DNA of 64,000 nt from positions 8,127 to 72,126 of the forward strand of contig JBNJDU010000003.1 of assembly GCA_051745165.1 (NCBI GenBank), in the 5' to 3' direction. This DNA comes from Patescibacteria group bacterium. Its GTDB lineage: Bacteria > Patescibacteriota > Minisyncoccia > Minisyncoccales > PWPS01. The position numbers and the translations under genes were made by a program. Every line of letters starts with the position of its first letter. Position 1 is the stretch's first letter. The notes below the pieces were generated by a model that worked only from the letters and a program-made list of their open reading frames with translations, had not been told where the DNA came from and did not search any database. Positions 2,875 to 50,071 of this stretch are shown piece after piece.

Positions 2875-4623
2875 TTAATAGGTTCTATGAACTGTACTAC
2901 AAGATTTAGATATTGAATCTTCGCTGCTATATGGGCCGGTTGGTGGTGCATTATGATACTTTTCTTCTCCCTCCCATTCACACTCATAACCTCCTGTATG
3001 AGGACAACCAGAAGGACTTCCACAATCGCCAGGATCAAATTCACAAACAGGTTCACAAACATCCCCAGGCGTAGCCCACCATTCACAAGAGTCATAATAA
3101 TAGACATGTTTTAAGTTATCGGGAACTCCAATTCCTCTTTCCTTCATTTGTTCTGGTTTTGTTATAGCACTACCTCCTTCTAATCTAGCACATGTAACAT
3201 TTCCTATAGGGGGAGTATCAGTTCCTGATTGTGTTTGAGGGCCACATGTACTTGTATTAGCACAATATTCTTCCTCCTTTTCATTACCGTCTTCATCTGT
3301 AACTGTTCTTGTTTGTGTTTGACATTGTGGTGTTCCATCACAAGGAGGTGGTCCTCCAGGTCTATATTGAGACCATACATAAAATTCTTGAAGTAGGTTA
3401 ATAGAGATATAAACATCCCAACCAGCTTCTAAGGCAGCATTTACTTCTGGTTCTAAGTCAACATTTACCATTTCTCCTTCTAAATCATATGTTACTGTAC
3501 CTCCGGTGACAGAATTTCCACAAAAATCAATATAATCCCCCCCTCTATTACTTGCATCACTTAAAGTGGACATTGCACTGCTTTGATTAAAGCTAGCAGA
3601 ATTAAAATTGAACCCATTCCACTGTGAATCTTCAACTAATCCTGAAGCAGTGCTATCTATTGAAGTATTGTAAAGTCTTAACTCACTAGGTGTTAAGTCT
3701 CCAATATCTACTAATTCATAAGGAACAGTTCCATTCAAATCAGTATCATGCAACTCTAATCTTTCTACCTGACTTCCCATGTCACCAATTTCAGAAGGAA
3801 TAGAACCAGATAAATCATTATCATAACCTAAAAAGTATATTGGAGATAAATCACCAATTTCAGAAGGAATAGAACCGGATAAATTATTTTTATAAAGTCC
3901 AATATAATCCGTACTGCTTAAATCACCAATTTCGGCAGGAATACTACCGCTTAACTCGTTACCTCCTAAATTTAACTGGAGTTCAGGATTTAAATCTCCG
4001 ATTGTGTCGGGAATAGAACCGGTAAGGTCTATATAAGCGGCTTTGTAAGCTAAATCTGGGTTTGCGTTTACCCACTCATCACTTAAAGAGCCTCCTATCG
4101 GGTTATTACTAACACTAAAAAGTTGTAGAGAATTAGTTCTTGGCTCTGGGTCGCTATAATGAGCTTCTACTTTTCTTTTTTGATGATTAGTTACTGAAAC
4201 TTGACATCTATTTTCTTTTGTAGCATCACATCCGGACCAACCAATAAATTCTTCTCCAGAGGCTCTTAATATTATGTTTTCTATATCTTCATTTGATTCT
4301 ATTACGTAAGGGGGGTTTTCTTCTCTTATATTAATATCTTTAGGAGTAGTTATATCACTATTAACCTGAGATATTCTATAATTTAAATCTTCAGAAGTAC
4401 TGAATTCATATTCTTTATTTATTTGATGATCATTTAAAAAAGCATGAACTTCTAACCGATTTTGTTTATTTCCACTTATTTCATCAGTAGTGGTGGTCGG
4501 ATAATCAAGAACTCCTTTTAAGTTATTTAATTGGTTAAAACTACTAAAAGTAGTAATTAATAACAAAGCTAAGAGCACTGACAAAACTAAAAGATAATCT
4601 TTTTTTATTTTTTTTATTTTCAT
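2875..4623 (-). CDS. Secreted/anchored protein with plant-type leucine-rich repeats (L..N.LSGSIP.EIGDL) and a Cys-rich C-terminal region
   Basis: 582-aa ORF. N-terminal hydrophobic segment LLVLSVLLALLLITTF. About 5 consecutive 24-aa repeats of the form NELSGSIPAEIGDLS / NNLSGSIPSEIGDLS / NDLSGSIPSEIGDMG. The C-terminal ~170 aa contain many Cys. Confidence 0.85.
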   Translation of the reverse strand: MKIKKIKKDYLLVLSVLLALLLITTFSSFNQLNNLKGVLDYPTTTTDEISGNKQNRLEVHAFLNDHQINKEYEFSTSEDLNYRISQVNSDITTPKDINIREENPPYVIESNEDIENIILRASGEEFIGWSGCDATKENRCQVSVTNHQKRKVEAHYSDPEPRTNSLQLFSVSNNPIGGSLSDEWVNANPDLAYKAAYIDLTGSIPDTIGDLNPELQLNLGGNELSGSIPAEIGDLSSTDYIGLYKNNLSGSIPSEIGDLSPIYFLGYDNDLSGSIPSEIGDMGSQVERLELHDTDLNGTVPYELVDIGDLTPSELRLYNTSIDSTASGLVEDSQWNGFNFNSASFNQSSAMSTLSDASNRGGDYIDFCGNSVTGGTVTYDLEGEMVNVDLEPEVNAALEAGWDVYISINLLQEFYVWSQYRPGGPPPCDGTPQCQTQTRTVTDEDGNEKEEEYCANTSTCGPQTQSGTDTPPIGNVTCARLEGGSAITKPEQMKERGIGVPDNLKHVYYYDSCEWWATPGDVCEPVCEFDPGDCGSPSGCPHTGGYECEWEGEEKYHNAPPTGPYSSEDSISKSCSTVHRTY

Positions 4624-4634
4624 TTTAATTAATT

Positions 4635-7514
4635 TTAGGAATCTGGAAACTCTCCCTTAAAATCATTATTTCTTATATTAAATGAGTTCATTTTATTAAC
4701 TTCATTCAACATTTCGTCAGGTAAATCTCCTTTAAAATCATTATTGTTTAATGACAAAACATCTTCTGGCAAACCTTCCTCTACCCATTTTTCCCAATCT
4801 ACTTCTCCTTCTCCAGATTTATTTTCTCCAAGGCTGAAATATTCTAATCTTTTTAATTCTTCTGCTCCTTCAGGGAAAGGAATTTTATTATTGTCATCTG
4901 TCGTATGAAAATCAAAACGAACTAAATTGTTTAGATCTTCAATATTACTAGCAAAAGAATCTATTTGGTTTTCGAAGCCGTAAATATTTTCTAAATTAGA
5001 TAGACTGTTTAGTTCATCAGGAACTTCTTCTATCGCATTATTATTAAAGTTAAATGTTTCTAAACTTGTTAGATTTTCTATTTCACTAGGAAGTGGTCCG
5101 GAAATTCCTTCGGAGCCTCTTCCCTGGTTTAAAGCTACATCAAACCATCTTAAATTACCCATGTTTTCAATTGCTGAATCAATTTGTCCATCAAGTTCAT
5201 TTTCATACATACTAAAATATTCTACATTACTTAAGCCTTCTAAGAATTTTTGATTTAATCCTCCTCCTATTTCATTTTCGTCAGCAAAAAACCTGTTTAG
5301 AGAAGACCAATTATTACTATCTGGATTAGGTAGAGAACCATCAATTTCATTGTATTGAAAATATGCCCTTCTAAGGTTACCCGCTTCCATTATTTTTCCT
5401 GGAATAGCTTGGGAGATGTTATTATTGTTTAAGTATAGCCTTTTTAGGTTATTTAAATCTCCTAACTCAGCTGGTAAATTTTCTAGATTATTATTTTGTC
5501 CGTAAAGATAAGTTAAATTGCTCATATTTGACCAATTTTCTTCTGGAAGAGATTCTAAAGAATTATTATTGATTAATAATGTTTCTAAAGAAGATAATTC
5601 AGTAATTTCTTGAGGTATAGCTCCACTCATTTGTCCTTGAATTTCTGATCTAATTTTTTTTGCTTGTCCAGCCTGTCGGGAAAGATTTAAATACTTTAAA
5701 TTTGAAAGATTAGTTACTTCGACAGGAAATTCTTCTAATAAGTTAGTCCCAAGCTCTAAATTTATTAAGTTATTACTATTAGAGCCCATTAAAAGTTCTG
5801 TAGTTCCTCCTCCACTATCTAAATCACGAAAACTTTCTGGAAGTGACTCTAATAAATTTTTATTTAAACTTAATTCTTGTAAGTTGTTGCCAAAATTATC
5901 TCCAAATTCTTCAGGTAATTTTTCTATTTTATTTTCAGAGAAATAGGCAAATCGAACTCTTGAAAGTTTTAATTCTTCGGGGATTGATTCTATTTCGTTT
6001 CTGCTTGCAAATAACCATTGAAGATTATCAGCAGTAGCTGAAAAATCATCTTCCTCTTCTTCTCCCTCATTACCACTAGATAGTTCTAGTTCATTATTTT
6101 CAATATTTAATGTAGTTAATTTATCTAAGTCAAAAACTTCTGCCGGAATCTCTCCTTCAAGGTTGTTATTATGAAGTCGTAGAGTTTTTAAATTAGATAA
6201 TTCTCCAATTTCTGCCGGAATCTCTCCTTCAAGGTTGTTGTTGTATAAGGACAAAAGAGTAAATGGGATTTCATTATCAAACTGTGATAAATTTTTTATT
6301 GAAGGAGGAATAGCTTCTTCATATTCATCGCTATTCATGCTTGTCTTGGTAGTTTCTTCTCCTTCGGAATTTTCTTCAGTAAAGCTAAAACCTTGAATAT
6401 TATTATTATCTAAACGTAAAGAATCTATAGCAGCAAGATCACCAATTGATTCAGGAATTAGTGTTAAGCAATTATATCTAAGATCTAAGGAAAGCTTTCT
6501 TGGATGCCAAGTTTCTCTAGTGTGATGATCTTGCAAATCTTGTAAGGATGACAAATCTCCTAATTCTTGTGGTAAATTGTAATCTTCTCCGCAATTTAAA
6601 AGATTATTAGCAGCATTTAGATGCTCTAATTTGTTTAGCTTCATTTCTACCTCTTCATCTTCTTCTGTATTATTAAATTTATCAAAAAGAGAGTTTAGAG
6701 AATTAGCCCTTACATTTAAAGTGTAAAGATTTTCTAACTCAATTATTTCTTCTGGTAGGTTTTCTAATGAATTATTATTAAGCGTTAAAATCTTTAAATT
6801 ACTTAAATCTCTAACTATTTCCTCTTCACTATTTTCTTTTTCTTCTTCTGTTGGGGTAATGTTAGCAAAAGAGGTAAGGTTGTTATTATGCAGGTAGAGC
6901 TCTTGTAAGTTAGTGAGAGAGCCTATCTCTGCCGGAATCTCTCCTTCAAGGTTGTTATTATGAAGTGATAAGACTTCTACATTCTCCAACCCTTCCATTT
7001 CTGCCGGAATCTCTCCTTCAAGGTTGTTATTATCTAAAATTAACCATCTTAATTGAGTAAAATCTTGTATATATTCAGGAATCTCTCCTTCAAGGTTATT
7101 ATGACTTAAATTTAATCGGTAAAAATCTTCTAGTTTAGTTAAATTTTCTGGAATCTCTCCTGTTATTGATTGATTCGACCAGGTGATTCTATTTATTCTA
7201 TCCAAATCTGAGGGCTCCATATGAATTTCTTTCTCTCCTGCTCTTCCAAAAAAGTGATCTACACCTGTCCTATTTTTATATATTAAGTGTTCATCATCTT
7301 CATTATCTTCTTCTATCGGCTCCTCATCGACAAAATGCCAATTAGCAAAACCACCAGGTCGCCAACTGGCTGATAAGGACACCGCTTCTTCGGCTAAGGT
7401 ATTTATCTTAATGAGAAATTCTTCCTCTTCTTCAGCTTTAATTGACCCTGATATAGCAAAAACAGAAATTAATAAAATAATGAAGAAGTAGGCTTTTTTT
7501 TCGGAGAAATTCAT
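4635..7514 (-). CDS. Large secreted leucine-rich repeat protein (959 aa)
   Basis: Signal-like N-terminus FFIILLISVFAISGSIKA. Many LRR units, both plant-type (NNNLEGEIPAEIG.L.NL) and typical 22-23 aa (L.NL..L.L.NN.L..LPEE). Start ATG overlaps the rsmA stop (ATGA). Confidence 0.9.
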   Translation of the reverse strand: MNFSEKKAYFFIILLISVFAISGSIKAEEEEEFLIKINTLAEEAVSLSASWRPGGFANWHFVDEEPIEEDNEDDEHLIYKNRTGVDHFFGRAGEKEIHMEPSDLDRINRITWSNQSITGEIPENLTKLEDFYRLNLSHNNLEGEIPEYIQDFTQLRWLILDNNNLEGEIPAEMEGLENVEVLSLHNNNLEGEIPAEIGSLTNLQELYLHNNNLTSFANITPTEEEKENSEEEIVRDLSNLKILTLNNNSLENLPEEIIELENLYTLNVRANSLNSLFDKFNNTEEDEEVEMKLNKLEHLNAANNLLNCGEDYNLPQELGDLSSLQDLQDHHTRETWHPRKLSLDLRYNCLTLIPESIGDLAAIDSLRLDNNNIQGFSFTEENSEGEETTKTSMNSDEYEEAIPPSIKNLSQFDNEIPFTLLSLYNNNLEGEIPAEIGELSNLKTLRLHNNNLEGEIPAEVFDLDKLTTLNIENNELELSSGNEGEEEEDDFSATADNLQWLFASRNEIESIPEELKLSRVRFAYFSENKIEKLPEEFGDNFGNNLQELSLNKNLLESLPESFRDLDSGGGTTELLMGSNSNNLINLELGTNLLEEFPVEVTNLSNLKYLNLSRQAGQAKKIRSEIQGQMSGAIPQEITELSSLETLLINNNSLESLPEENWSNMSNLTYLYGQNNNLENLPAELGDLNNLKRLYLNNNNISQAIPGKIMEAGNLRRAYFQYNEIDGSLPNPDSNNWSSLNRFFADENEIGGGLNQKFLEGLSNVEYFSMYENELDGQIDSAIENMGNLRWFDVALNQGRGSEGISGPLPSEIENLTSLETFNFNNNAIEEVPDELNSLSNLENIYGFENQIDSFASNIEDLNNLVRFDFHTTDDNNKIPFPEGAEELKRLEYFSLGENKSGEGEVDWEKWVEEGLPEDVLSLNNNDFKGDLPDEMLNEVNKMNSFNIRNNDFKGEFPDS
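6138..7098 (-). repeat. Five near-identical ~22-31 nt DNA repeats (ctgccggaatctctccttcaaggttgtt) inside the LRR gene
   Basis: Copies read at 6138-6167, 6209-6239, 6927-6956, 6998-7028 and, shorter, 7076-7098. Each encodes NNLEGEIPAE. Confidence 0.8.
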
Positions 7515-9601: not shown

Positions 9602-9949
9602 ATGATAAAATTAAGCAATATGCCAGAAAAAGAACCAACAATTGAGCACGAACCAAATCCGGAAAAGAAAAGAGAAATTCCGGAAGCCGAACAAAATTTT
9701 TCTGAAAAACAAGAGGAAACTTTTGACATTCCAGAAGAAGGTAAGAAAGAAATTAGAAGAAAAAAAGAAGAAGAAAAAGAAAAACAAGAAGCTTATAAAG
9801 AGGAAATAGAGGAATTGGTAGCATTAGCAAAGGAAAAAGGATTTTCTAAAGCTTATAAAAAAGCTAAAAAGTTAAGTAATAAAAACAACGATTCAATAAT
9901 AATTGATCGGTTTCATGACCGTTTATCTCAAGAAGATTTAAATGACTAA
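9602..9949 (+). CDS. Small Lys/Glu-rich hypothetical protein (115 aa)
   Basis: ORF overlaps the start of the downstream ATPase gene by 8 nt. Low-complexity K/E-rich composition with no recognisable domain. Confidence 0.5.
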   Translation: MIKLSNMPEKEPTIEHEPNPEKKREIPEAEQNFSEKQEETFDIPEEGKKEIRRKKEEEKEKQEAYKEEIEELVALAKEKGFSKAYKKAKKLSNKNNDSIIIDRFHDRLSQEDLND

Positions 9950-12347
9950 TTTACCTTTTCAAATTCATATATATTTACCAATAATTCTGGTAATAATCGG
10001 GTTAGTATGGTTTTTGATATTGAGGAGAATAAGAAGAAAGGATTTAGAAAAAGGGCTTAATATGTCCTTGTTTTTAATTAGGCTTCCTAAATACGAACAA
10101 AATGAGAGAAAGTTGTCAATTGAGGAAATTAGATCTTTAATAGGTAAGATGGAGCAATTTTATTCTAATTTTTTATACTTAGAAAAGAAAAGTTTTTTTG
10201 GAACCCCGCCTGAAATAGCTTTTGAAGTTTCTTCTCAAATAGGAGGCTCTGATATATCATTTTTTGTTTCTGTTCCTGATAGATTAAAAACTTCACTGGA
10301 TAAATATGTCCAAGGTATTTTTCCTGGAGCTGTCCTGCAGGAAGTTCCTGAGGATTATACTATTTTTGAACCTGGAGGAGTTGAAAAAGCTTCTTATTTA
10401 CAGCTAAAAAAGCATTACGGATTACCAATTAAAACTTATAAAGAATTAGAAAATGATCCTCTAGAAAGTATAACTAATTCACTTACGAAAATTACTAAGG
10501 ATGAAGGTTCTTCTATTCAATTAATTTTAAAACCAACTAGCTTTAGTTTTAAGAGAAAAATAAATAAAATACAATACTTAATAAAAAAGAAAGGTTTGAG
10601 TTTTTCGCAAGCTACTAGAAAGGCGGAAAGAAGCTTTTTCTTAGATATTATAAAAGAATTTTTTGATATTCTGCTTAATTCATCAAACGATAAAGAAGTA
10701 AAAGAAGATCAAGATTTATTAGAAGCAATTAAGAAAAAAGGAAAGCACCCTGCTTTTGAAGCTAATGTAAGACTTGTGGCGGCTGCAAAACAAAAAGAAA
10801 AAGCAGAAGATGTTTTAAATAATTTAGAAAGTGGATTTTCACAATTCTTTTCTAATTTTAATGGTTTTAGATTTAAAAGAGTAAAAGGAAGACATTTTCA
10901 TAAACTTATAGATAATTATAGTTTTAGAAGATTTAATAAGAAAGAAAAGATGGTATTGAATTTAGAAGAGCTATCTAGTATTTATCACTTCCCTCTTTCT
11001 CATATGAAGACACCATATATTAACTGGGTTAAAACTAAAGAGTCTGCTCCTCCTTCTAATTTACCAGAAAATGGGCCAGTTCTTATTGGGAATGTTGTAT
11101 TTAGAGGAGAAGGTAAAGACGTTTATATTGGATCTCGAGAAGATAGAAGAAGACATGTCTATACTATAGGTCAAACTGGAGTAGGTAAAACTTCTTTAAT
11201 GCAGGAAATGATTAGACAAGATATGGAAAATGGAGAAGGTGTCGGGGTTATAGATCCTCATGGAGACTTAATTGAAGACACTTTAGCTAACGTTCCGAAA
11301 AATAGAATAGATGATGTTGTTTTGTTTGAACCGTTTGACACTAGAAGACCTTGTGGATTGAATATGCTCGAATGGGACATTCCTGAGCAAAAGGATTTTG
11401 CAGTTTCAGAAATGATCTCAATATTCACTCAACTGTTTCCACCGGAAATGATAGGTCCCATGTTTGAGCATTATATGAGAAATGCAATGCTCGCTTTAAT
11501 GGCAGACAAAGAAAATCCAGGAACTTTAGTAGAAATACCAAAAATATTTACGGATGATGACTTTATGAGAGAAAAGGTAAGCAAAGTCTCTGATCCAATG
11601 GTGAGAAACTTTTGGGAAAAAGAATGGCAACAGACTGTTGGTGAGGATAAATCAAAGATGCTTGGGTATGTAGTTTCTAAAGTGGGTCGCTTTGTAGAGA
11701 ACGAGATGATGAGAAATATTATTGGTCAGCAACATTCCAGTTTTGATTTAAGCAAAGTAATGGATGAAGGAAAAATATTTTTAGTTAATTTAACTAAAGG
11801 TCTTACTGGAGAAATGAATAGTTCTTTGTTAGGACTTATTTTAGTTTCTAAGTTGCAAATGGCGGCAATGAAAAGAGTTAATACACCTCAAGAACAAAGA
11901 AAAGATTTTTATCTTTATATTGATGAGTTTCAAAACTTTACGACTGACAGCATAGCTACGATTCTTTCTGAAGCCCGTAAATACAAGCTTAATTTGATTT
12001 TAGCAAACCAATTCATGCCACAACTCAAAGATGAGATTAGAGACGCTGTAATCGGCAATGTGGGTACTATAGCGGCTTACAGAGTAGGTGAAGACGATGC
12101 AGAATTTTTAGAAAACAAATTCTCGCCTGAATTTTCTAGCTTTGATCTTTCTAATATTAGTAATTACCATTATATTACTAAAATGATAGTAGATGGTAAT
12201 GTAACCTCTCCTTTTAAAGTAAAGGCCCCTTATCCACAAGAAGGGGATAAGGGGCAGGTAAAATCTATTAAGAAACTATCTAAACAAAAATACGGAAGAC
12301 CTAAGAAAAAGGTAGAAAATAGAATGAAAGAAAGAGGTATTGTTTAG
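9942..12347 (+). CDS. Membrane-anchored P-loop ATPase of the TraD/TrwB/VirD4 (FtsK-HerA superfamily) coupling-protein type
   Basis: N-terminal TM helix (IYLPIILVIIGLVWFLIL). Walker A GQTGVGKTS followed by VIDPHGDL. Walker B-like FYLYIDEFQNF. C-terminal arrangement typical of T4SS DNA-binding coupling proteins. Confidence 0.75.
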   Translation: MTNLPFQIHIYLPIILVIIGLVWFLILRRIRRKDLEKGLNMSLFLIRLPKYEQNERKLSIEEIRSLIGKMEQFYSNFLYLEKKSFFGTPPEIAFEVSSQIGGSDISFFVSVPDRLKTSLDKYVQGIFPGAVLQEVPEDYTIFEPGGVEKASYLQLKKHYGLPIKTYKELENDPLESITNSLTKITKDEGSSIQLILKPTSFSFKRKINKIQYLIKKKGLSFSQATRKAERSFFLDIIKEFFDILLNSSNDKEVKEDQDLLEAIKKKGKHPAFEANVRLVAAAKQKEKAEDVLNNLESGFSQFFSNFNGFRFKRVKGRHFHKLIDNYSFRRFNKKEKMVLNLEELSSIYHFPLSHMKTPYINWVKTKESAPPSNLPENGPVLIGNVVFRGEGKDVYIGSREDRRRHVYTIGQTGVGKTSLMQEMIRQDMENGEGVGVIDPHGDLIEDTLANVPKNRIDDVVLFEPFDTRRPCGLNMLEWDIPEQKDFAVSEMISIFTQLFPPEMIGPMFEHYMRNAMLALMADKENPGTLVEIPKIFTDDDFMREKVSKVSDPMVRNFWEKEWQQTVGEDKSKMLGYVVSKVGRFVENEMMRNIIGQQHSSFDLSKVMDEGKIFLVNLTKGLTGEMNSSLLGLILVSKLQMAAMKRVNTPQEQRKDFYLYIDEFQNFTTDSIATILSEARKYKLNLILANQFMPQLKDEIRDAVIGNVGTIAAYRVGEDDAEFLENKFSPEFSSFDLSNISNYHYITKMIVDGNVTSPFKVKAPYPQEGDKGQVKSIKKLSKQKYGRPKKKVENRMKERGIV

Positions 12348-12700: not shown

Positions 12701-15700
12701 TTAATTAGCACTTTCTTCTTCCTCTTGCTCTTCTTGAGGAGCTTCCTCTTCTGAGTTTTCAGTTGTTTCGTCTTGATTAGATTCTTCCTTTTCGTTTTGT
12801 TGATCTTCTTCTGTTTGATTATTTTCTAAGTCTTCACTAGATTCAGACTCTTCAATATTTGGTTCAGACTCTTCAATGTCAGGATTGTTGTCAATCCTGT
12901 CAATAATCTCTTCCATAGCCTCCATAGAGGCGGTTAGAGCGAAGCGGTTATCAATGATAGTGTAGTAGATACCAAAGTCTATCTCCTCGCTCATTTCTTC
13001 GTAAGTGGTGTTATCCACAGCTTCTCCTTCTTCAGGGTTAGTTTCAATCTCCTTTTCTCCTTTTTCGGAAAAATTACTTGATACCCATCCTGTAGTTTCC
13101 TCATCGATTCTAATTTCAAACCAACCATTTTCTTCATTTAAAAACTCATGTTCTGTTCCTGCATCAACAGTATCAATTTGCTCTTCATTAACTGAAGAGC
13201 CTGCTCTAACATTTAAACCTTCTTCCCCAACAGAATTGCTAATAACCACAACTTCTTCTGTTTCTGTATCTCCTTCTATGAATTTACCTTCTAGCTCATT
13301 AAACTCGTCATTAGTAATGGCTTCGGTTACTTCATTGTTTTCAGTGTCAACAGTTAAAGCTAAATTATGAGAGGTAGGTCCTTCTTCTGATTCTAAATCA
13401 CTATAACCGGAGTCTTCTGTTTCAAATTCAAAGCGCATTATTGCTCCATCTGGTTCTTCATTAGTTTCTACATGAGTTAAATTACTACCTTCTTTATTTG
13501 TGTAGGTAGGAATATTAGATTCGATCCAACTTTGAATATTTTCTTCTAAAGTTGCTTCGTTTGGATGATGGGTGAAGTGAGAAACTTCATAATCCTTATA
13601 CTCGGTAGTTTTTTGTTCAGAATCAATATCTTCTGTATTATAATTGTGTAGTTGTAGGAAATTAGAGAAGTCTTGAACCATGCTTTCTTCCCATGGAGAA
13701 ATTCCCATATCACGGAAGTCCGCTAATCCCCCTTCTTCAATTTCTCCAATAAATCCTAGAGTGTTTTGCTCTCCTGAATGAACGAAAAGAGTAAATTCAT
13801 CCTTTAGTAAATCTAAGAAATGACCAGTTGGAGGAGAAATTCTTAGGGCGTTGAAAAACTCATTAAGATGCATTACCCTCCTTGGGTTTTCTGATTGATT
13901 TAAAATAATAAGCTCATTAAATGTTGATCCTTCAGCATTTTCCAGTCTACTATTTAAGAATATAGGGACTTCGTCTAAATTAGCAGTAGAAAACTCTCTA
14001 ACTTCATCGTTTTCATTTGTAGGAAAGAGAGTTCTGACTGTTAAAACTTCTTCTATTTCGAAGGTAGTTTTACTTTCGTCTATTGTATTGCCGGCATTAT
14101 CAACTCCTTCTACTTGAGCTTCTATTTCTGAACCTGTTAATTCAGGAGGGAAGCTGTAAGAAACTGTTTCACCATTAAGATTTTCCAATTCTTCTACTTC
14201 TCCCTCTTCTATTTCTGTAGTTAATGACCAGTTAAAGTCAGAGAATTCTCCATCGAATTGAACCTCCATTTCATATTCATAACCTTCAGTTTGTTCAACT
14301 TCTACTCCAAAGATTTCTGGATCAGGTTGTGTATCTTCAGATTCTGGTCCAAAAAATGATGTAATTCCCATTACAACACCAAAAAGGAGTAAAGCAGCAA
14401 CCCCAACAACACCAATTCTAGCAATCATTTTTGATTTGTTAGTTGGTTTTTTGGGTTTATCTTCTGTGATATCAGGAGAACCTTTTTCATCTGAGTCTGA
14501 AGGTGGAGTTGGAGGAGATGATGGAGCTGCTTTTTTATTATTTCCTGGCCCTGATGAAGCACCAATAGGGCGTTCAAAAGCACTATCCTCTTCTTCCTTA
14601 GTATCTTCTTTTTGAGTATCTTGGTTTAAATCTTTATTTAATTCATTTGCTAAATTTTTAGGAGGTGTTGGCTTAGAGTCGCCTTTATCTTTATTTGGCG
14701 TGTCTTCCTTAGTTTCTAGACCTCCTAAGCTTTTAGGTTCTTTTTTTTGAGAGGCTTTGTCTTTCTGAGGTGATTCTTCTTGTGTTTTTCCTTCCACCTT
14801 TTCTTCTAGTCTTTTTAAGAACTCCTCCCTTTCCTTTTCTTCTTCCTCTTCTACTTTATTTTCTTCTCCACCAACCCCATCATTATTATTACTATCTTCT
14901 TTTGATTGTGGTTTTTCTTCTTTTTTATCACTATCTTCTTTTTTCTTCTTTTGGTCATCATCTCCCTCATTCTTATCCGTTTTATTTACACTTGACCTAT
15001 TTGATTGAGGTCCTTTTCTTCTTTGCTGCTTTTCTTTTTTTATTTTTTCTTCCCTCTCCTTTTCTTCTCTTTGAAAATCTTCTTTTGACTTTCCTTCTTC
15101 AATTGCAAAGTTTACATCCTCTAATTCTCCTTTTATTTCATCTTCTCTTCGAGCAATGAGTTGCAATTCTTCTCTTTTGTTTTTAATTTCTTCTAATTCT
15201 TTTTCAAGTTCCCATCTTTCTTTTTCTATTTTTCTCCTTTCTTCTTCAGCATCCCATCTTTTTTCTTCCACCTCCCTTTTCTTATTTGGTTCTTCAGCTA
15301 GTTTTTCTTCCCTCTCAATTTCTTTTCCTTTTTCTTCTATTTCATTTTCGCGTTTTTCTATTTCATTTAAGCGCGTATTTATTTCATCTTCTCTTTTATC
15401 TAGTTCCGATGTTTTTTCTTCAATTGTTTTTCTTAATTCCGAAAATCTACTTAGCTCTTCTTTAAGTTCTTGTTTTTCTCTTTTTGCTTCAATTTGACTT
15501 TTACTCTTATCAAGAGATTCGATTTTATCTTTGAGGTTCTTTTCTTTATTTAAAACTTGTTGATATCTAAGCTCTATTTTGCTTTCTTGCTCTTTTAATT
15601 TTTCAATTTCTTCTTCTACTTCCCATCGTTCCTCTTCAGCTTCTTTTCTTCTTTCCTCCACTCTCCATCGGCGACTTTCTATTGCTCTCTTCTCTTCGGG

Positions 15701-17545
15701 CGTTGAAGCTTCAGCTTCTTTTTCTTCAATTTCTTCTTTTTCTTCTTCTATCTCCTCTTCCCTTTTCTTTAAAAGATTTAATTTCTTATTTAAGTGGTTA
15801 ATTTTTTCTCTCTTTTCAGCTCTTTTTTCAGCTAAGCTTCTCTTTTCTTCTTTTATCGAGTTAAATTCCTTTTTAAGTGTTTCTTTTTCTTCTTCTATCT
15901 CTTCCTTTTCTTTTTCTTTCTTTAAATTATTAACTTTTTCTTTTAAATTCTCCTCCTCACTGATTATATCTTGATATTTGCTTTCAACTTTTCTTTTCCT
16001 TTGCCTTATTCGGTTTAATTTTTCTTCTACACTCCATTCTTTTTCCTCCCACTTTCTTCTCTTTTGTTCAATTTCCCATCTTTCTTTTTCTATTTGTCTT
16101 TTTTCCTCTGGATCTTCAACTAATTTTTCCTTTTCTTCCATCTCTTTCTCTTCAGTCTTTATTTCTTCTAGTGTTTTAATTACATCCTCTAAAGAGCTTT
16201 TAGCTCTTTTCTCTTTTTGCAGTAAACCTTCTTTTTCTACTTCTAGTGTTTTCTTTTCTTTAATTAACTCTTGTATATCGTCCTCTAATTTTTCAATTTC
16301 ACCTTCTGGAGCTAGTGCGTCTTCTTTATGGTCAGTTTTTCTTTCCTCTTTCTTCTTCTGAGATTTTTCTTCTTCACTTCTAAGATCATCAAGCTTAAGC
16401 TCTAATTGAGATTTAACTTCTCTTAAATGAGCTATTTCAGTATTTATTTCTTCTAAATCTTTTTCTAAATCTTTTACTTTTCTCTCTTTTTCCCACCTTC
16501 TATTTTCAACTTCCCTTCTTTCATCTTCTAGTTTCCATCTTTGTTCCTTTAATTCTCTTTGTTTTTTCGGTTCTTTTTCAACATCTTCTTCTTTCTCAAT
16601 CTCTTCTTCTCTTTCTTCAATCTCCTTTTCTTCCTTTATGATCATTTCTAACTCCTCTTCAAGCTGAGTTTTTTGTCCAGAAAGATCAGTTTTTTCTTTT
16701 TTTGTTTTTTGAAGTTTAGAATTTATTTCAGAAAGTTTTTCTTCTAATTTATCTTTATTGTTTGCTATTTTTCCTATACTTCCTGATCTTGCTCTTTTCT
16801 TTTTTAGCTCTCTTTCTTCTCTTTCTGATTTTTTATATTCTCTATCTTTTTGCCTGATTTCTCTTTTCACATCTGATATTTTTTCTTCTAAATCCCACCT
16901 CTTTTCTTCTTGCTCTTTTCTTTCGTCTTCTAAATCCCACCTTTTCTTCTGAAGTTCTCTACGCTTTGAAGAAGTGTTTGCATTTTCAAGTTCTTTTTCA
17001 AGCTCTTTCTTTTTCTTCTCTATACTTTTTTCTTTTTCGATTACTGAGTTTAAATCATTCTCCAGAGAATCTTTTTTTTCTATTAGTTCTTTTTCTTCTT
17101 TTTTTAATTTTTGTTGAAATTCTGGCTTATCAGCTAATTCTTCTTCTGCTTCCTTTCTCTCCTTTTCTTCCTTTCTCTCCTTTTCTTCCTTTATTTCTTC
17201 TCTTAAAGCTTCTTTTTCTTCTTTAAGCTCTTCTTTTTTAGCTTCTATCTTTTCTTTTTCTTTTGGTAGGTTTTTAAGTTCATCTTCCCACTCCCATAGC
17301 TCATCTTCTAGAGCGGCAATTTTATCTTCTAACTTCCACCTTTTTTTCATTATCTCTTCATCCTCTCCTTCTTCCTCCAAGCTGTTTTGTTCTTCTTCAG
17401 CTTTCTTTAGTTTATTTTTTATTTTTTCAATAGATTCTTTTAGCTGCTCTTCTTTTTTGGAGAGTTGTTTTTTTTCTACATTAAGCCCTTCAATCTTTTC
17501 TTCAATTTTCTGAGCTTTCTCTTTTAGTTGTTTAGTGTTTGACAT
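12701..17545 (-). CDS. Giant bitopic protein (1614 aa): ~800-aa repetitive coiled coil, disordered K/E/P-rich linker, one TM helix, extracellular region with SH3b-like domain, acidic tail
   Basis: Long uninterrupted ORF. TM IARIGVVGVAALLLFGVVMGITSFF at about aa 1040-1065, preceded by KPKKPTNKSK (positive-inside). SH3b-like GLNVRAGSSVNEEQIDTV...NGWFEIRIDEETTGWVSSNF at about aa 1443-1492. Confidence 0.85.
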   Translation of the reverse strand: MSNTKQLKEKAQKIEEKIEGLNVEKKQLSKKEEQLKESIEKIKNKLKKAEEEQNSLEEEGEDEEIMKKRWKLEDKIAALEDELWEWEDELKNLPKEKEKIEAKKEELKEEKEALREEIKEEKERKEEKERKEAEEELADKPEFQQKLKKEEKELIEKKDSLENDLNSVIEKEKSIEKKKKELEKELENANTSSKRRELQKKRWDLEDERKEQEEKRWDLEEKISDVKREIRQKDREYKKSEREERELKKKRARSGSIGKIANNKDKLEEKLSEINSKLQKTKKEKTDLSGQKTQLEEELEMIIKEEKEIEEREEEIEKEEDVEKEPKKQRELKEQRWKLEDERREVENRRWEKERKVKDLEKDLEEINTEIAHLREVKSQLELKLDDLRSEEEKSQKKKEERKTDHKEDALAPEGEIEKLEDDIQELIKEKKTLEVEKEGLLQKEKRAKSSLEDVIKTLEEIKTEEKEMEEKEKLVEDPEEKRQIEKERWEIEQKRRKWEEKEWSVEEKLNRIRQRKRKVESKYQDIISEEENLKEKVNNLKKEKEKEEIEEEKETLKKEFNSIKEEKRSLAEKRAEKREKINHLNKKLNLLKKREEEIEEEKEEIEEKEAEASTPEEKRAIESRRWRVEERRKEAEEERWEVEEEIEKLKEQESKIELRYQQVLNKEKNLKDKIESLDKSKSQIEAKREKQELKEELSRFSELRKTIEEKTSELDKREDEINTRLNEIEKRENEIEEKGKEIEREEKLAEEPNKKREVEEKRWDAEEERRKIEKERWELEKELEEIKNKREELQLIARREDEIKGELEDVNFAIEEGKSKEDFQREEKEREEKIKKEKQQRRKGPQSNRSSVNKTDKNEGDDDQKKKKEDSDKKEEKPQSKEDSNNNDGVGGEENKVEEEEEKEREEFLKRLEEKVEGKTQEESPQKDKASQKKEPKSLGGLETKEDTPNKDKGDSKPTPPKNLANELNKDLNQDTQKEDTKEEEDSAFERPIGASSGPGNNKKAAPSSPPTPPSDSDEKGSPDITEDKPKKPTNKSKMIARIGVVGVAALLLFGVVMGITSFFGPESEDTQPDPEIFGVEVEQTEGYEYEMEVQFDGEFSDFNWSLTTEIEEGEVEELENLNGETVSYSFPPELTGSEIEAQVEGVDNAGNTIDESKTTFEIEEVLTVRTLFPTNENDEVREFSTANLDEVPIFLNSRLENAEGSTFNELIILNQSENPRRVMHLNEFFNALRISPPTGHFLDLLKDEFTLFVHSGEQNTLGFIGEIEEGGLADFRDMGISPWEESMVQDFSNFLQLHNYNTEDIDSEQKTTEYKDYEVSHFTHHPNEATLEENIQSWIESNIPTYTNKEGSNLTHVETNEEPDGAIMRFEFETEDSGYSDLESEEGPTSHNLALTVDTENNEVTEAITNDEFNELEGKFIEGDTETEEVVVISNSVGEEGLNVRAGSSVNEEQIDTVDAGTEHEFLNEENGWFEIRIDEETTGWVSSNFSEKGEKEIETNPEEGEAVDNTTYEEMSEEIDFGIYYTIIDNRFALTASMEAMEEIIDRIDNNPDIEESEPNIEESESSEDLENNQTEEDQQNEKEESNQDETTENSEEEAPQEEQEEEESAN
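15214..17341 (-). repeat. Six protein-level modules (~133-153 aa period), each with a paired motif (K/R)RW..E..R(R/K)...E..(R/E)W..E
   Basis: First Trp of each pair at aa 70, 203, 337, 490, 627 and 764. The second Trp follows 14 aa later in five modules and 14-16 aa later in the first module. Confidence 0.8.
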
Positions 17546-27164: not shown

Positions 27165-27896
27165 ATGTTTGATATGTCTAATAAATTTATGTGGATAGCT
27201 GTATTTGCAGTTTTATCAGCTCTTGTTAATGGTATAGGGATTTGGGCAATTTCTAAGAAAAAAGAGTGGGTAGAAAAAACTAAAAACTATTTTATGTGTT
27301 TTGCTGCTGGAATCTTGGTTACTACCCCATTAATACTTGCTCTACCTAATGCTTTAGAAAAGACTGAATGGGCTGGTTTTGCTGCTTTGGGAGGTTTTCT
27401 TTTTATGTTTTTCTCTAAAAAAATTATAAATTATTATGTTAAAGAGGATTCATTAGTCTTTGGAACGGTTACTGCTCAAGGGATTGGAATTCACTCTTTT
27501 GTTGATGGTGTAGTTTATGCGGTTACTTTTCAAGCATCAATTTTGGTGGGTGTTTTAGCTGCTACTGGAATGGTTATGCATGAGTTTTCAGAAGGAGTAA
27601 TTACTTATTCAGCCTTAATAAAGAGCAATGTGAAAGAAAAGAAGGCTTTCTGGTCTGCTTTTGCAATTGCCGGACTTACTACACCACTTGGAGCGTTTGT
27701 TGGGTATCCTATTATTAGCTTAGTTAATGAAACTGTTTTAGGAGGACTTTTAGGTTTTGTTGCCGGAGTATTATTATTTGTTTCTGCTTCACATTTACTA
27801 CCAGAAGCAGAGGCTGGTGAGAATGAACATTCAGTTGGTGCTTTTAGTGTAGGGGTGGCAATTGCTTTGTTTATATTTTTGAGTAAATTCCTATAA
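27165..27896 (+). CDS. ZIP-family (ZupT-like) divalent metal transporter
   Basis: Polytopic membrane protein with HSFVDGV and HEFSEGV motifs. Confidence 0.85.
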   Translation: MFDMSNKFMWIAVFAVLSALVNGIGIWAISKKKEWVEKTKNYFMCFAAGILVTTPLILALPNALEKTEWAGFAALGGFLFMFFSKKIINYYVKEDSLVFGTVTAQGIGIHSFVDGVVYAVTFQASILVGVLAATGMVMHEFSEGVITYSALIKSNVKEKKAFWSAFAIAGLTTPLGAFVGYPIISLVNETVLGGLLGFVAGVLLFVSASHLLPEAEAGENEHSVGAFSVGVAIALFIFLSKFL

Positions 27897-27898
27897 GT

Positions 27899-28154
27899 GC
27901 GCTCGATACCCTCTTTGAAGAACCACTCCTCAAGAATCGCCAGCGGCGATTCGGAAGTTGTATGCTCGCTGATTTATTTTGGCAAAGCCAAAAACCATGC
28001 TAAATCAGCTCCGCAAACTTCTTCAAAAAGAGTATCTTCGCTTCGGGTTGTGAAATTCCTCTGCGAGGGCTTCTTTGAGGAGATGTTCTCGCTTGTGGAA
28101 TAAAACTTTGCTCAATCAACTCAGCGAACTTCTTCAAAGAGGGTATCTTCGCTT
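27899..28154. repeat. Nested-hairpin element, copy A (left arm, 2 hairpins, 3 right-arm copies)
   Basis: Left arm GCGCTCGATACCCTCTTTGAAGAA at 27899-27922. Hairpin GAATCGCC-AGC-GGCGATTC at 27934-27952. Hairpin GCTGATTTA...TAAATCAGC at 27969-28009 with inner TTTTGGC-AAA-GCCAAAA. Right arms at 28019-28043, 28071-28094 and 28130-28154. Confidence 0.85.
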
Positions 28155-28203
28155 ACGATTAAAAACAAAATTTTTTGCAAAGGCTTTTTATTTAACCATA
28201 AAC

Positions 28204-28230
28204 AAAACCGCCCGATTAAGGACGGCTTTT
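28204..28230. terminator. Bidirectional terminator-like hairpin (AAAA-CCGCCC-gattaa-GGACGG-c-TTTT) just 3' of tRNA-Gly
   Basis: Hairpin flanked by an A run and a T run, located between convergent units. Confidence 0.55.
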
Positions 28231-35489: not shown

Positions 35490-35517
35490 ATTATACTTGA
35501 AAGTGACCATTAGTCAA
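35490..35517 (-). promoter_or_regulatory. sigma70-like promoter for rpsT (TTGACT-16-TATAAT)
   Basis: -35 at 35517-35512 and -10 at 35495-35490 on the minus strand. The -35 lies 2 nt from the left arm of repeat copy B. Confidence 0.65.
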
Positions 35518-35519
35518 AT

Positions 35520-35665
35520 GCGCTCGATACCTCTTTCATAAGAACCAGAACTCAAATCTTCCAGCGAAGATTTGGTTCTTGCGCTCTCGGTAGCTCATTT
35601 TCAGCAAGCTAAAAAACCTTGCTGAGCTACCTCCGAGAGCTTCTTTGAAAGGGGTATCTTCGCTT
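35520..35665. repeat. Nested-hairpin element, copy B
   Basis: Left arm GCGCTCGATACCTCTTTCATAAGAA at 35520-35544. Hairpin AAATCTTC-CAGC-GAAGATTT at 35554-35573 inside AAGAACC/GGTTCTT. Hairpin GCTCTCGGTAGCTCA...TGAGCTACCTCCGAGAGC at 35583-35640 with inner AGCAAG/CTTGCT. Right arm TTCTTTGAAAGGGGTATCTTCGCTT at 35641-35665. Confidence 0.85.
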
Positions 35666-35676
35666 CAACCTCACTA

Positions 35677-35714
35677 GTCATTCTGAGGCCGGAGCCCGAA
35701 GAATCTCTTCGTAA
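35677..35714. repeat. Short repeat family 2 (GTCATTCTGAG..N..GAAGAATCTCTTCGTAA), copy 1
   Basis: Matches 49994-50029 and partially 50051-50071. Confidence 0.75.
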
Positions 35715-48641: not shown

Positions 48642-48692
48642 ATACTTTTAATCGAAAGGTTTGCTTTCGAATTTACTTAAACTTTTAAAGTG

Positions 48693-49046
48693 TGGAGATG
48701 GGGAGGTGTGACCCCCCGTCCGAAAATCCCTCCAAAATGAATCTACAAGCTTAGCCCGGTTTTTTCTCGACCGAAGCCTTGTACCGGACGAAGCTACTCC
48801 GGTCAAAGGTCTTTTAGCGTTCGCAAGGTCTGAGACCAACAAACCTTGTATAACCCGAATTTATGGTACTTTTACCACCCATCGGGTGTCAGTGGTAAAA
48901 GCAAGCTGTTACGCTACTGCTGGTGCAGGAGCGAAAGCTAAACTATCTTGTAAGTTGGCACTTACTAGATTTGGCAAGATTTACGAGATTTGCCAACTCG
49001 GCTTGCTACATTTTGAAGGTGATTCTCGTCTAGTCAACTCACCCCC
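48693..49046 (-). ncRNA. ssrA: tmRNA (SsrA)
   Basis: 5' GGGGGTGAGTTGACTAGACGAG pairs with 3' ...CCCCATCTCCA to give a tRNA-like acceptor with a G3-U pair. T-arm-like GGACGGGGGGTCACACCTCCCC. Internal tag frame GCC AAC TTA CAA GAT AGT TTA GCT TTC GCT CCT GCA CCA GCA GTA GCG TAA. Lies next to smpB. Confidence 0.85.
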
Positions 49047-49064
49047 GTTTGTTTATGTGCTAAT

Positions 49065-49514
49065 TTATCTGTTTCGTTTCATTCGTCTTCTTAGATTTCT
49101 ATCAACTTCTCTATCTTTAATCTTTTTGCGTTTGTCGTATTTCTTTTTACCGCGACAAACACCAAACTTGAGCTTAATCAAGCCTTTTTTAGTATACACT
49201 TTCAGAGGCACTAAAGTCAAGCCCCTTTCATTAGACTTTCCCATCAAGTATTTTATCTGTTTTTTAGTTAAAAGAAGCTTTCTTGATCTTTTTGGATCAT
49301 AATCGTCCGGAGCGTTTTTTGGTTGATACGGAGGAATATTTACTCCAATTAAAAATGCTTCTTCTTCTCGTATTACTATATAAGCCCCTTTTAGGGATAT
49401 TTTCCCCTTTTTAATAGCTTTCACTTCTTGCCCATTTAAAACCATGCCTGCCTCGAACTCTTCGAGGATTTCATAATCATGATAAGCTTTTCTATTTTTT
49501 GATAAAGTCGACAT
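49065..49514 (-). CDS. smpB: SsrA-binding protein SmpB
   Basis: NRKAYHDYEILEEFEAGMVLNGQEVKAIK...LLLTKKQI...GLTLVPLKVY. Confidence 0.95.
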   Translation of the reverse strand: MSTLSKNRKAYHDYEILEEFEAGMVLNGQEVKAIKKGKISLKGAYIVIREEEAFLIGVNIPPYQPKNAPDDYDPKRSRKLLLTKKQIKYLMGKSNERGLTLVPLKVYTKKGLIKLKFGVCRGKKKYDKRKKIKDREVDRNLRRRMKRNR

Positions 49515-49550
49515 ATCTTTATATTAACAGAAAATATCTTAACAATAAAT

Positions 49551-49758
49551 ACGCTCGATACCCTCTTTTGAAGAATCAGACCTCAAAAGTCACCAGCGTG
49601 ACTTGGGTCTTCTTCGCTCACCGATTCATTTCAGCAAAGCTGAAAACCGGCTGAATCGGTTCCGCGGAGTTCTTCAAAGAGGGTATCTTCGCTTTGGGTT
49701 ACGAAAAGACCATGCAAAATCCTCTCCGAGAACTTTTTCAAAGAGGGTATCTTCGCTT
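49551..49758. repeat. Nested-hairpin element, copy C (left arm, 2 hairpins, 2 right arms)
   Basis: Left arm ACGCTCGATACCCTCTTTTGAAGAA at 49551-49575. Hairpin AGTCAC-CAGC-GTGACT at 49588-49603 inside AGACC/GGTCT. Hairpin ACCGATTCA...TGAATCGGT at 49620-49660 with inner TTCAGC-AAA-GCTGAA. Right arms at 49670-49694 and 49734-49758. Confidence 0.85.
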
Positions 49759-49800
49759 CTAATTTTGACTATTAACTATATACTTTTGACTGTTAACCAA

Positions 49801-49822
49801 CCCGCTCAGAAGGCGGATTTTT
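49801..49822 (+). terminator. Orphan plus-strand terminator-like hairpin (CCGCT-cagaa-GGCGG + ATTTTT)
   Basis: Short GC stem followed by a T run. No plus-strand protein gene lies upstream of it. Confidence 0.4.
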
Positions 49823-49993
49823 ATTAAATAAGGTAATTTGTCAAAATATTTTATAAATTGGGATTTGGTAATTTTTTAGAGTAATTAGGTCAATTAGAGC
49901 AATTAGAGTAATTTAGTCATTGTTATCGTTATAGTCATAGTGATTGTCATAGTCATCATCATTGTTGCAAACAAAGCGAGCGGTGGTCCTCCC

Positions 49994-50071
49994 GTCATTC
50001 TGAGCCGTAGGCGAAGAATCTCTTTGTAATAATGCTCAATTTTCAACTACAGCCGAAGAATCTCTTCGTAA
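49994..50071. repeat. Short repeat family 2, copies 2 and 3 (GTCATTCTGAGCCGTAGGCGAAGAATCTCTTTGTAA; AGCCGAAGAATCTCTTCGTAA)
   Basis: 49994-50029 and 50051-50071 match 35677-35714. Confidence 0.75.

Follow-up and report, generated by a model that had tools for sequence, protein, structure and literature searches.

A folded, mosaic repeat family of about 145 nucleotides that often abuts stop codons in Candidate Phyla Radiation genomes

The stretch of DNA analyzed here (hereinafter, the window) comprises 64,000 nucleotides (nt) of contig JBNJDU010000003.1 (positions 8,127 to 72,126, forward strand; assembly GCA_051745165.1) from a bacterium of the Patescibacteria, or Candidate Phyla Radiation (CPR), and carries, in three intergenic regions, copies of a folded element of about 145 nt. 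Copy A lies between a ZIP transporter gene and a convergent tRNA-Gly gene, copy B lies in the spacer between rpsT and ruvA, and copy C is located in the intergenic region between the divergent genes for smpB and a PG-binding protein. A preceding sequence-only reading had described the arms, tips and nested hairpins of these three loci, all of which are present as stated. The unit is a three-way junction that consists of P1, a helix of about 20 bp formed by two inverted arms (18-25 nt and imperfect in all full copies), P2, a hairpin with the tip CCAGCG, and P3, a nested hairpin. In addition to the stems described previously, P2 has a covarying outer stem (ACUCC/GGAAGU, AGAAC/GUUCU, AGACC/GGUCU) with a conserved UCAA internal loop between it and the inner stem, and P3 has a basal stem of 5-6 bp and a conserved bulge on its 3' strand, AAAACC(A/U/G)UGC.

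The full unit of copy A spans 27899..28043 on the plus strand (138.5 bits with covariance model R1, 95.1 bits with the core model R2) and is composed of the left arm (27899-27922), P2 (27925-27958, tip CCAGCG), P3 (27960-28018) and its own right arm (28019-28043, two mismatches to the consensus). As noted in the sequence-only reading, it starts 2 nt past the stop codon of the ZIP transporter gene (27894-27896, the last nucleotide of the open reading frame (ORF) being 27896). The unit is followed by two 5'-truncated modules on the same strand, namely a degenerate one (28044..28094), which consists of a remnant of the P3 3' strand and a decayed right arm (28071-28094) and is overlapped by a weak covariance model match at 28063-28154, and another one (28095..28162) that comprises AAAACTTTGC, the P3 3' strand, a perfect right arm with no mismatches (28130-28154) and the tail ACGATTAA. 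The previously claimed 18/18 complementarity between the left arm (27905-27922) and the arm of the last module (28130-28147) is correct, and it is this arm that closes P1 in the minimum-free-energy fold of the whole copy A array. Copy B is a single full unit (35520..35665, plus strand, 158.5 bits with R1) with the left arm at 35520-35544, P2 at 35547-35579, P3 at 35583-35640 and the right arm at 35641-35665. The full unit of copy C (49551..49694, plus strand, 138.4 bits with R1) includes the left arm (49551-49575), P2 (approximately 49578-49610), P3 (approximately 49612-49669) and the right arm (49670-49694), and is followed by one 5'-truncated module (49695..49758, plus strand) that is composed of GAAAAGACCATGC, an orphan P3 3' strand and a right arm (49734-49758).

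The three copies are mutually 71-77% identical. With up to three mismatches allowed, the 25-nt right arm occurs four times in the window, at 28019, 28130, 49670 and 49734 (2, 0, 0 and 1 mismatches, respectively), compared to 0 occurrences expected from shuffled sequences; the right arms of copy B and of 28071-28094 are more degenerate and were recognized by eye only. A repeat finder detected one direct-repeat family here (D12), with five 64-nt units that bear the right arm and start at 27990, 28101, 35612, 49641 and 49705; two of the five are the extra 5'-truncated modules. The extra right arms of copy A that had been reported previously are thus present, but they are not bare arms: they belong to 5'-truncated modules of about 50-64 nt that combine the P3 3' strand with a right arm. 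The associated proposal that these arms provide alternative closing helices fails in other arrays of the family, where no left arm complements the extra right arms, which are of a second type.

Compensated replacement of the stems, on which the sequence-only reading placed most weight, is borne out by an independent MAFFT alignment of 10 copies. Among the 53 pairs predicted by RNAalifold, 32 are altered on both sides, compared to 16.1±2.5 in shuffles, none of which (0/500) reaches 32, and to only 4-10 doubly changed pairs in slid-register controls; paired cells amount to 93.7%, vs 81.6% in shuffles. The same pattern is apparent between individual copies. Window copy B and its counterpart at the same site in L027 (loci outside the window carry L numbers) differ on both sides of eight pairs, seven of which are still paired. 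The copies in L009 and L020, both located behind leuS, differ at 8 of 147 positions, and four of these eight differences, read directly, make up two compensated P2 pairs. Compensated differences are also present between paralogs that are 95-97% identical. P1 covaries as a whole: in L026 the arms are GGGTTGGGG.../...CCCCAACCC, and L028b has yet another arm pair enclosing a P2 from which that of copy B differs by one compensated pair. The fold is, therefore, kept by compensatory change. The unpaired motifs are conserved across subfamilies.

The two strands of the element are alike in folding and pairing. The ~145-nt units of the window have fold z-scores of -5.8 to -10.2 on the plus strand, and folding of the reverse strand is about as good (z of -5.8 to -8.0). 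Of 615 pairs counted, 570 are Watson-Crick, 11 G-U, 18 A-C and 16 other, and when the G-U and A-C counts (11 vs 18) are used to identify the functional strand, there is no asymmetry and neither strand is singled out. This almost purely Watson-Crick pairing, with G-U no more common than A-C, counts against the inference that the covariation points to a dedicated RNA gene.

Real copies are seen only in CPR genomes. A two-arm pattern scan of 185,579 species genomes, for which about 8 chance loci are expected from the information content of the pattern, returned 16 loci, including 12 chance matches in unrelated phyla and four real ones, all CPR (Nealsonbacteria, Saccharibacteria, Sungiibacteriota and Uhrbacteria). 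The metagenome scan with the same pattern added five further real loci, soda-lake contigs included; the scan of viral contigs returned 0 loci, and BLAST searches of phage and plasmid sequences gave no match to the element. The histidine kinase of the window is 100% identical to a protein labelled as coming from a Patescibacteria group bacterium, whereas look-ups of its exact SmpB and ZIP proteins returned no record. Six syntenic contigs of relatives were obtained via homologs of this kinase (60-73% identity), and one further contig was reached via a spurious ORF lying over an array. The covariance model searches that the sequence-only reading had proposed identified 14 distinct full copies in 231 kb, and the family as observed has about one copy per 20 kb; searching these 231 kb with the core-only model R2 added no copies, and a translated search of ORF databases for further copies, using the pseudo-ORFs of the element, matched only 3 ORFs.

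The arms and the tip, which the earlier reading took to be conserved, are so within the window, where CCAGCG is invariant, but not elsewhere: tip variants (CCGGCG, CCCGCG, CCAACG; general form C-NGC-G) occur beyond the window, and in L026, L028b and L023 the core common to the family is enclosed by other complementary arms. The "conserved arms" are partly genome-specific and partly a product of the arm-based search pattern. The Uhrbacteria locus (L004) was rejected as a family member given that only the arms are in common and the interior is unrelated, with no significant fold (z of -0.4). At this locus (941-1220, 57% GC), two tandem units of about 142 nt, which have only the terminal arms in common, lie between the end of a tyrosine-recombinase-like gene and tRNA-Arg, and each right arm runs directly into the left arm that follows (GTATCTTCGCTT|CGCTCGATACC).

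Comparison of orthologous sites shows gain, loss and replacement of the element. No copy is present at site A in L024, where the tRNA terminator directly follows the ZIP stop codon. Site B is occupied in the window, in L024 (with a replaced interior), in L026 (with different arms) and in L027/L018, and is empty in L022, L023 and L025; L023 has a copy at a position where both the window and L027 lack one. In the site B copy of L024, the 3' half of P2 and P3 have been replaced by a hairpin of CTGCC repeats. In L010, L019, L021, L027 and L028a (contigs, not genomes, being counted), a subfamily is 91-97% identical at five unrelated sites, namely behind mreB, a Fib_succ-domain gene, an HTH-PRTase gene and an unnamed gene, and, for L027, in the rpsT/ruvA spacer. 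Full copies are regularly trailed by one to four 5'-truncated tandem modules ("3'-half") with a right arm of either type 1 (TTCTTCAAAGAGGGTATCTTCGCTT) or type 2 (TTCTTTCAACCCCAAYCCCTCGCTT), and type-2 modules are often found downstream of a type-1 left arm, with which pairing is impossible; arms and core are separately exchangeable modules. These findings overturn the exclusion of a mobile repeat in the sequence-only reading. Covariation had been taken to rule out a MITE-like repeat (miniature inverted-repeat transposable element) and to point to an RNA gene, but sites A and B are empty in syntenic relatives; mobile copies had been expected to share their interiors, which one subfamily does; and most arrays are mosaics or contain truncated remnants. 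The combination of conserved inverted ends and a compensated interior, likewise counted against mobility, has been published for REPINs, which are mobile DNA (PMC3116915).

Several other small sequences lie at or near these sites. At site A, a stretch of about 48 nt between the copy A array and the tRNA terminator (window 28155-28216) is missing in the L024 ortholog; it is bounded by the near-identical direct repeats TAAAAACAAAAT / TAAACAAAAC and may be a small insertion or a slippage product. The CTGCC-repeat hairpin (CCTGCCTGCCGGCAGGCAGG) is a third small element that sits within type-2 right arms, between TTC and TTTCAACCCC (L019 6971-6990, L024 14640-14659, L026 7258-7276, L009 3454-3472); in L024 and in the second L010 copy, it has replaced everything from the P2 loop onward. 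A second palindromic family, GTCATTC..(N)..GAATC, is clustered in these intergenic regions as well, on the downstream side of copies B and C (window 35677-35705 and 49994-50020), and is also present in L009, L010, L021, L023 and L026. In its variant ...GATCCTTCGCTTCGCTCAGGATGAC, the core CTTCGCTTCGCTC is similar to the junction between right and left arms of the ~145-nt element. This second repeat looks like the widespread one that gives rise to spurious ORFs of the "LRFAQDD/VILSEAKNL" type in metagenomes.

Where present at the same site, the element is better conserved than its neighbors. Between L009 and L020, identity is 95% in the element vs ~75% in leuS, with the downstream DNA being unalignable; between window copy B and L027, it is 82% in the element vs 65-74% in holA, rpsT and ruvA. 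L009 (3236-3285) and L020 agree at 100% of the ~24 nt of leuS that precede the stop codon, in a gene that is otherwise ~75% identical, which could reflect either a conserved tract reaching into the gene or a recent recombination tract covering the gene end together with the element.

At 9 of 12 independent sites, the element is found in sense orientation 0-3 nt behind the stop codon of a co-oriented gene. The distance is exactly 2 nt (TAA-GT/TT-GCGCTCG) in window copy A, behind leuS (L009/L017/L020), behind mreB and gatC (L010), and in L019, L021 and L028a; in L007 the element starts after 3 nt, and in L028b it follows the stop codon directly (0 nt). Sense orientation at all nine stop-codon sites corresponds to a two-sided p of ~0.004. 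The host genes (ZIP, leuS, mreB, gatC, cobA, glutaredoxin and others) have no common theme, and every copy points in the direction in which most of the surrounding genes run. The 5' flank reads (T/C)AA-N-T in 12 of 14 copies and usually overlaps the TAA stop codon; given that sites B and C have it too, although they lack a stop codon, this motif is part of the element or of its target. GC skew, considered as a means to separate replication from transcription, merely follows the coding strand, so that the two directions could not be separated by it.

Intrinsic terminators follow six arrays (window A, window C, L019, L020, L026 and L028a). Four of these arrays are located behind the stop codon of a co-oriented gene and hence would lie in 3' untranslated regions (UTRs); those of window C and L026 are in divergent spacers. 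The sequence between the copy A array and the convergent tRNA-Gly gene includes a GC-rich hairpin flanked by A and T runs (28204..28229), which the terminator scan called on the minus strand only; on the plus strand it reads AAAACCGCCCGATTAAGGACGGCTTTTAAAA and, judged by eye, would also end the ZIP transcript, placing the copy A array in the ZIP 3' UTR. Copy B is located 2 nt from the -35 hexamer of the near-consensus promoter of the divergent rpsT gene (35517..35490, minus strand; TTGACT-16-TATAAT, 11/12 matches) and 121 nt upstream of ruvA; the promoter is kept in all syntenic relatives as TAGTCAAAT...TTATTATACTTGAAA, and copy B thus occupies the UP-element position. Copy C is preceded at a distance of 15 nt by a promoter-like site (49508-49535, plus strand), and its array is followed after 44 nt by a terminator-like hairpin with a T-run (49802-49826, plus strand), both consensus matches only; on the basis of these motifs, copy C could be a stand-alone transcription unit of about 280 nt, antisense to the region upstream of smpB.

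The element was further compared with known classes of RNA and mobile DNA. In agreement with the sequence-only reading, which could not match it to RNase P, SRP, 6S or any familiar riboswitch consensus, a search of the whole window against Rfam 15 at the gathering threshold yielded only tmRNA (48690-49046, minus strand) and four tRNAs, and relaxing the cutoff to E<=10 for copies A and C produced only chance-level matches (for example, U4 with 15 vs 46 bits and SL2 with 25 vs 41), none of them credible. The window also encodes no transposase, reverse transcriptase, Cas protein or integrase, which extends to the whole 64 kb the earlier remark on the absence of the first three near the copies, and no autonomous insertion sequence with the same ends was detected in the window, among the gene calls of L022-L028 or in the phage, plasmid and viral collections. 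As in MITEs, there are terminal inverted repeats, with the qualification that the arm sequence is not universal (two types plus others), as well as insertion polymorphism and near-identical copies at unrelated sites. As in REPINs, the ends are inverted and conserved and the spacer is compensated; there is no Y1_Tnp-type gene, as expected of REP-RAYT systems, in the 64-kb window or the annotated loci, and the ends (GCGCTCG...TCGCTT) carry no GTAG or CGTC tag. The AA-N-T 5' flank and the lack of a clear duplication fit IS200/IS605-type elements; the long inverted arms do not.

Several candidate classes were rejected. An integron attC site is incompatible with the ends, which are unlike the RYYYAAC...GTTRRRY core sites, with the three-way junction, with the housekeeping neighbors and with the lack of an integrase in the window. 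The element is not itself an intrinsic terminator since there is no T-run after the right arm and separate canonical terminators lie downstream of the arrays, and it is not a riboswitch or 5' leader given its position directly behind the stop codons of unrelated genes at 9 of 12 sites. Retron msr/msd and CRISPR were dismissed because no such genes are found in the window and the 145-nt units with irregular half-modules are not repeat-spacer arrays; TIGR-Tas arrays (tandem guide-RNA arrays beside a tas gene) do not fit single units with half-modules and no tas gene in the window. A k-turn in the conserved CUC/UU internal loop of P1 was discarded as well because the non-bulged strand lacks the required G-A.

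Taken together, we favor, at a probability of roughly 0.55, the interpretation of the element as a CPR-specific mosaic repeat family similar to REPIN, BIME and MITE that is transcribed as a 3'-UTR structure and spread in trans. Under this scenario, the array would be co-transcribed as the 3' UTR of the upstream gene, and the long P1 helix would form immediately in front of the terminating ribosome, where it could serve as a determinant of mRNA stability or processing, either as a barrier to 3'-exonucleases such as PNPase or as a target of a double-strand RNase, or both (cf. REP, ERIC and Correia); both PNPase and RNase Y are encoded in the window. Spread and replacement would depend on a trans-acting enzyme able to recognize the ends in their folded form, with insertion beside the (T)AA-N-T motif. 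Several observations weigh against this interpretation. Sites B, the most widely shared one, and C are not behind a co-oriented gene, so that a 3'-UTR role cannot be the whole story. Genes for a transposase, RAYT, integrase or reverse transcriptase were found neither in the vicinity of the window copies nor in the gene calls of L022-L028. Target-site duplications, which the sequence-only reading expected of a plain MITE, are not consistently found: a TAA often follows the right arm by 5 nt (ACGGG-TAA), the offset varies (-1, 0, 1 or 5 nt), TAA is common in DNA of 33% GC and at +5 may be part of the unit, and the TAA...TAA arrangement is suggestive at site A only, where the sequence after that TAA (AAACAAAAT) resembles the post-stop sequence of the empty L024 site (AAATAAAAT). 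Finally, conservation at orthologous sites above that of adjacent genes is not what one expects of a merely selfish, decaying repeat and suggests host-level function or selection, concerted evolution or recent recombination.

The same excess of conservation over the adjacent coding sequences, with unalignable intergenic flanks, also speaks for a dedicated structured RNA family, acting either as a cis 3'-UTR device or as a released small RNA, in which case the copies would be paralogous functional loci, a CPR protein or a partner RNA would recognize the UCAA loop, the C-NGC-G tip and AAAACC-NUG-C, and mobility would be incidental or ancient. This possibility, which we consider tentative and clearly less probable than the mosaic repeat, is consistent with the covariation of all helices, including the wholly replaced P1 of L026 and L028b, with the conservation of the unpaired motifs across subfamilies, with the sense orientation at 9/9 stop-codon sites (p ~0.004), and with the terminators of the copy C and L026 arrays and the promoter-like site of copy C, none of which depends on an upstream co-oriented gene. 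It accounts poorly for presence and absence at orthologous sites, for the L024 copy that lost half of P2 and all of P3, for the abundance of orphan half-modules and for the lack of a common theme among the host genes, and a reverse strand that folds equally well, together with A-C mismatches at least as numerous as G-U, is atypical of an RNA selected on one strand. In a further alternative, the element would act as folded single-stranded DNA, either as a recombinase site or as the non-autonomous partner of a transposase of the HUH/Y1 class (IS200/IS605 or RAYT type), inserted in a strand-specific manner 3' of AA-N-T on the lagging-strand template, with the sense orientation being a by-product of the co-orientation of genes and replication. 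The near-exclusive Watson-Crick pairing without a G-U excess on either strand, the (T/C)AA-N-T flank in 12/14 copies, in some cases without a stop codon and with no demonstrable duplication at the other end, and the co-orientation of all copies with the dominant gene strand are compatible with this mechanism; compensated differences between paralogs that are 95-97% identical would fit selection at the copying step or hairpin-templated correction; and REPIN/RAYT provides a precedent (PMC3116915). We nevertheless regard it as rather unlikely: a Y1/HUH transposase gene is present in no locus with gene calls, the ends of IS200/IS605 are not long terminal inverted repeats, AA-N-T is frequent in intergenic DNA of 33% GC and alone does not explain the choice of stop-overlapping positions at 9/9 gene-adjacent sites, and replication and transcription cannot be separated by GC skew.

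A further reading centers on the abutment to stop codons. The element would then be either a host-retained 3'-UTR RNA device peculiar to CPR, a three-way junction with its invariant C-NGC-G tip and AAAACC-NUG-C bulge, coupling termination to mRNA processing or decay via an unseen protein, with the closing helix beginning exactly at the leading edge of the ribosome on the stop codon, or a mobile element that targets stop codons; we find this quite unlikely, but if true, either termination-coupled control or stop-codon-targeted integration would be a mechanism undescribed for bacterial repeats. Very improbable, in our judgment, is a small peptide encoded by each unit or module, starting at AACC-NTG-C in the frame M/L/V-L-N/K-x-L-R-E-L-L-Q-R-G-Y-L-R-L. 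Such a peptide would account for the start of the truncated modules a short way upstream of this codon. In about 20 of 21 units, the base before TG is A, T or G and never C (window 27997-28053, 49718-49768 and equivalents), both L009/L020 differences inside the frame are synonymous, and an A-rich spacer preceded by GGG is found upstream of modules. Yet length and C-terminus vary from 9 to >40 residues, with copy B stopping after 9 codons and the full unit of copy C lacking a start; the two arm types yield unrelated residues (QRGYL vs STPIP) while complementing their own left arms; and the translated search matched only 3 database ORFs. Indels of 1 nt between copies, variable stops and non-synonymous changes (P/L, C/Y) that are compensated on the opposite P3 strand led us to reject a coding reading of the units, and the ATG/TTG/GTG frame at the bulge is probably a by-product of nucleotide constraints.

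Elsewhere in the window, the output of the repeat finder is dominated by a 1614-amino-acid ORF (12701-17545, minus strand) of extremely low complexity, with Glu/Lys-rich repeats of 21-nt periodicity, upstream of which are encoded two leucine-rich-repeat proteins with 72-nt periodic repeats (2875-7514) and a VirD4/TrwB-like coupling ATPase (9942-12347). Directly downstream of smpB, the tmRNA gene (121 bits; 48690-49514 for the pair, minus strand), for which ARAGORN made no call, has a tRNA-like 3' end ...CUCCACAC that is not CCA-terminated.

The genomes of CPR/Patescibacteria are tiny and gene-dense, so a structured repeat that survives in them must be either very well tolerated or useful. The mosaic repeat family described here accordingly offers a tractable case for asking if "resident" repeats of the REPIN kind have become domesticated and in what way structure in the 3' UTR bears on termination and mRNA decay under a minimal RNA-processing machinery. 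The covariance models could be used to mask the elements in CPR annotation, where they yield spurious ORFs, and the elements are possible strain markers.

In the literature searched, no small repeat family has been described for CPR/Patescibacteria, and the ~145-nt folded repeat family is previously undescribed; by its architecture, it appears analogous to REPIN/BIME, ERIC, Correia and BOX. REPINs and REP-BIMEs, which are mobilized by RAYT in Pseudomonas and Enterobacteria, resemble the CPR element in the inverted ends that close a long hairpin around a less conserved, compensated interior, in the solo remnants, tandem clusters and mosaic arrays, in the persistence at orthologous sites and in the extragenic location, typically between stop codon and terminator. 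REPs lie behind genes and have an mRNA-stabilizing role; reportedly (Liang, Rudd and Deutscher, 2015), a REP within ~15 nt of the stop codon can lower the expression of the upstream gene. In REPINs, the inverted ends are invariant, the "critical features" of the spacer are its length and hairpin-forming capacity, "compensatory changes ... are common", singlets represent remnants and some units form tandem clusters (PMC3116915). The CPR element differs in that it shows no sequence similarity to these repeats, no GTAG/CGTC-tagged REP unit and no RAYT, in that a two-hairpin three-way junction with conserved loop motifs takes the place of a simple spacer, and in that it is low-copy, belongs to another phylum and keeps a largely fixed 2-nt distance from the stop codon.

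The Correia (CREE/NEMIS) elements of Neisseria and the ERIC/IRU elements of Enterobacteria are likewise 100-170 nt long, with terminal inverted repeats of ~25 nt and insertion polymorphism, and are co-transcribed with neighboring genes as long RNA hairpins, as proposed for the CPR element. The Correia and ERIC families have near-identical interiors and a clear TA duplication, in contrast to the highly diverged CPR subfamilies with their covarying stems and swappable arms, for which a duplication is not demonstrable. Transcripts of MITEs fold into stable stem-loops; RNase III cleaves Correia elements within their terminal inverted repeats, and transcript levels change where ERIC elements lie at the 3' ends of genes (PMC10969869). 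The BOX elements of Streptococcus pneumoniae, which are transcribed and unrelated in sequence to the CPR element, are similarly intergenic and modular (A-B(n)-C), with pairing end modules and a variably repeated internal or terminal module; in the CPR element, it is the 3' half, right arm included, that is repeated, and this module follows the closing helix instead of lying inside it. The RPEs of Rickettsia are palindromic repeats of ~100-150 nt in a reduced-genome bacterium; they are old, have diverged while keeping their structure and are tolerated within or beside housekeeping genes. They insert in frame within coding sequences, unlike the CPR element, which abuts the coding sequence just outside the stop codon. 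This abutment to stop codons is the unusual property of a CPR repeat that otherwise belongs to a known kind of element.

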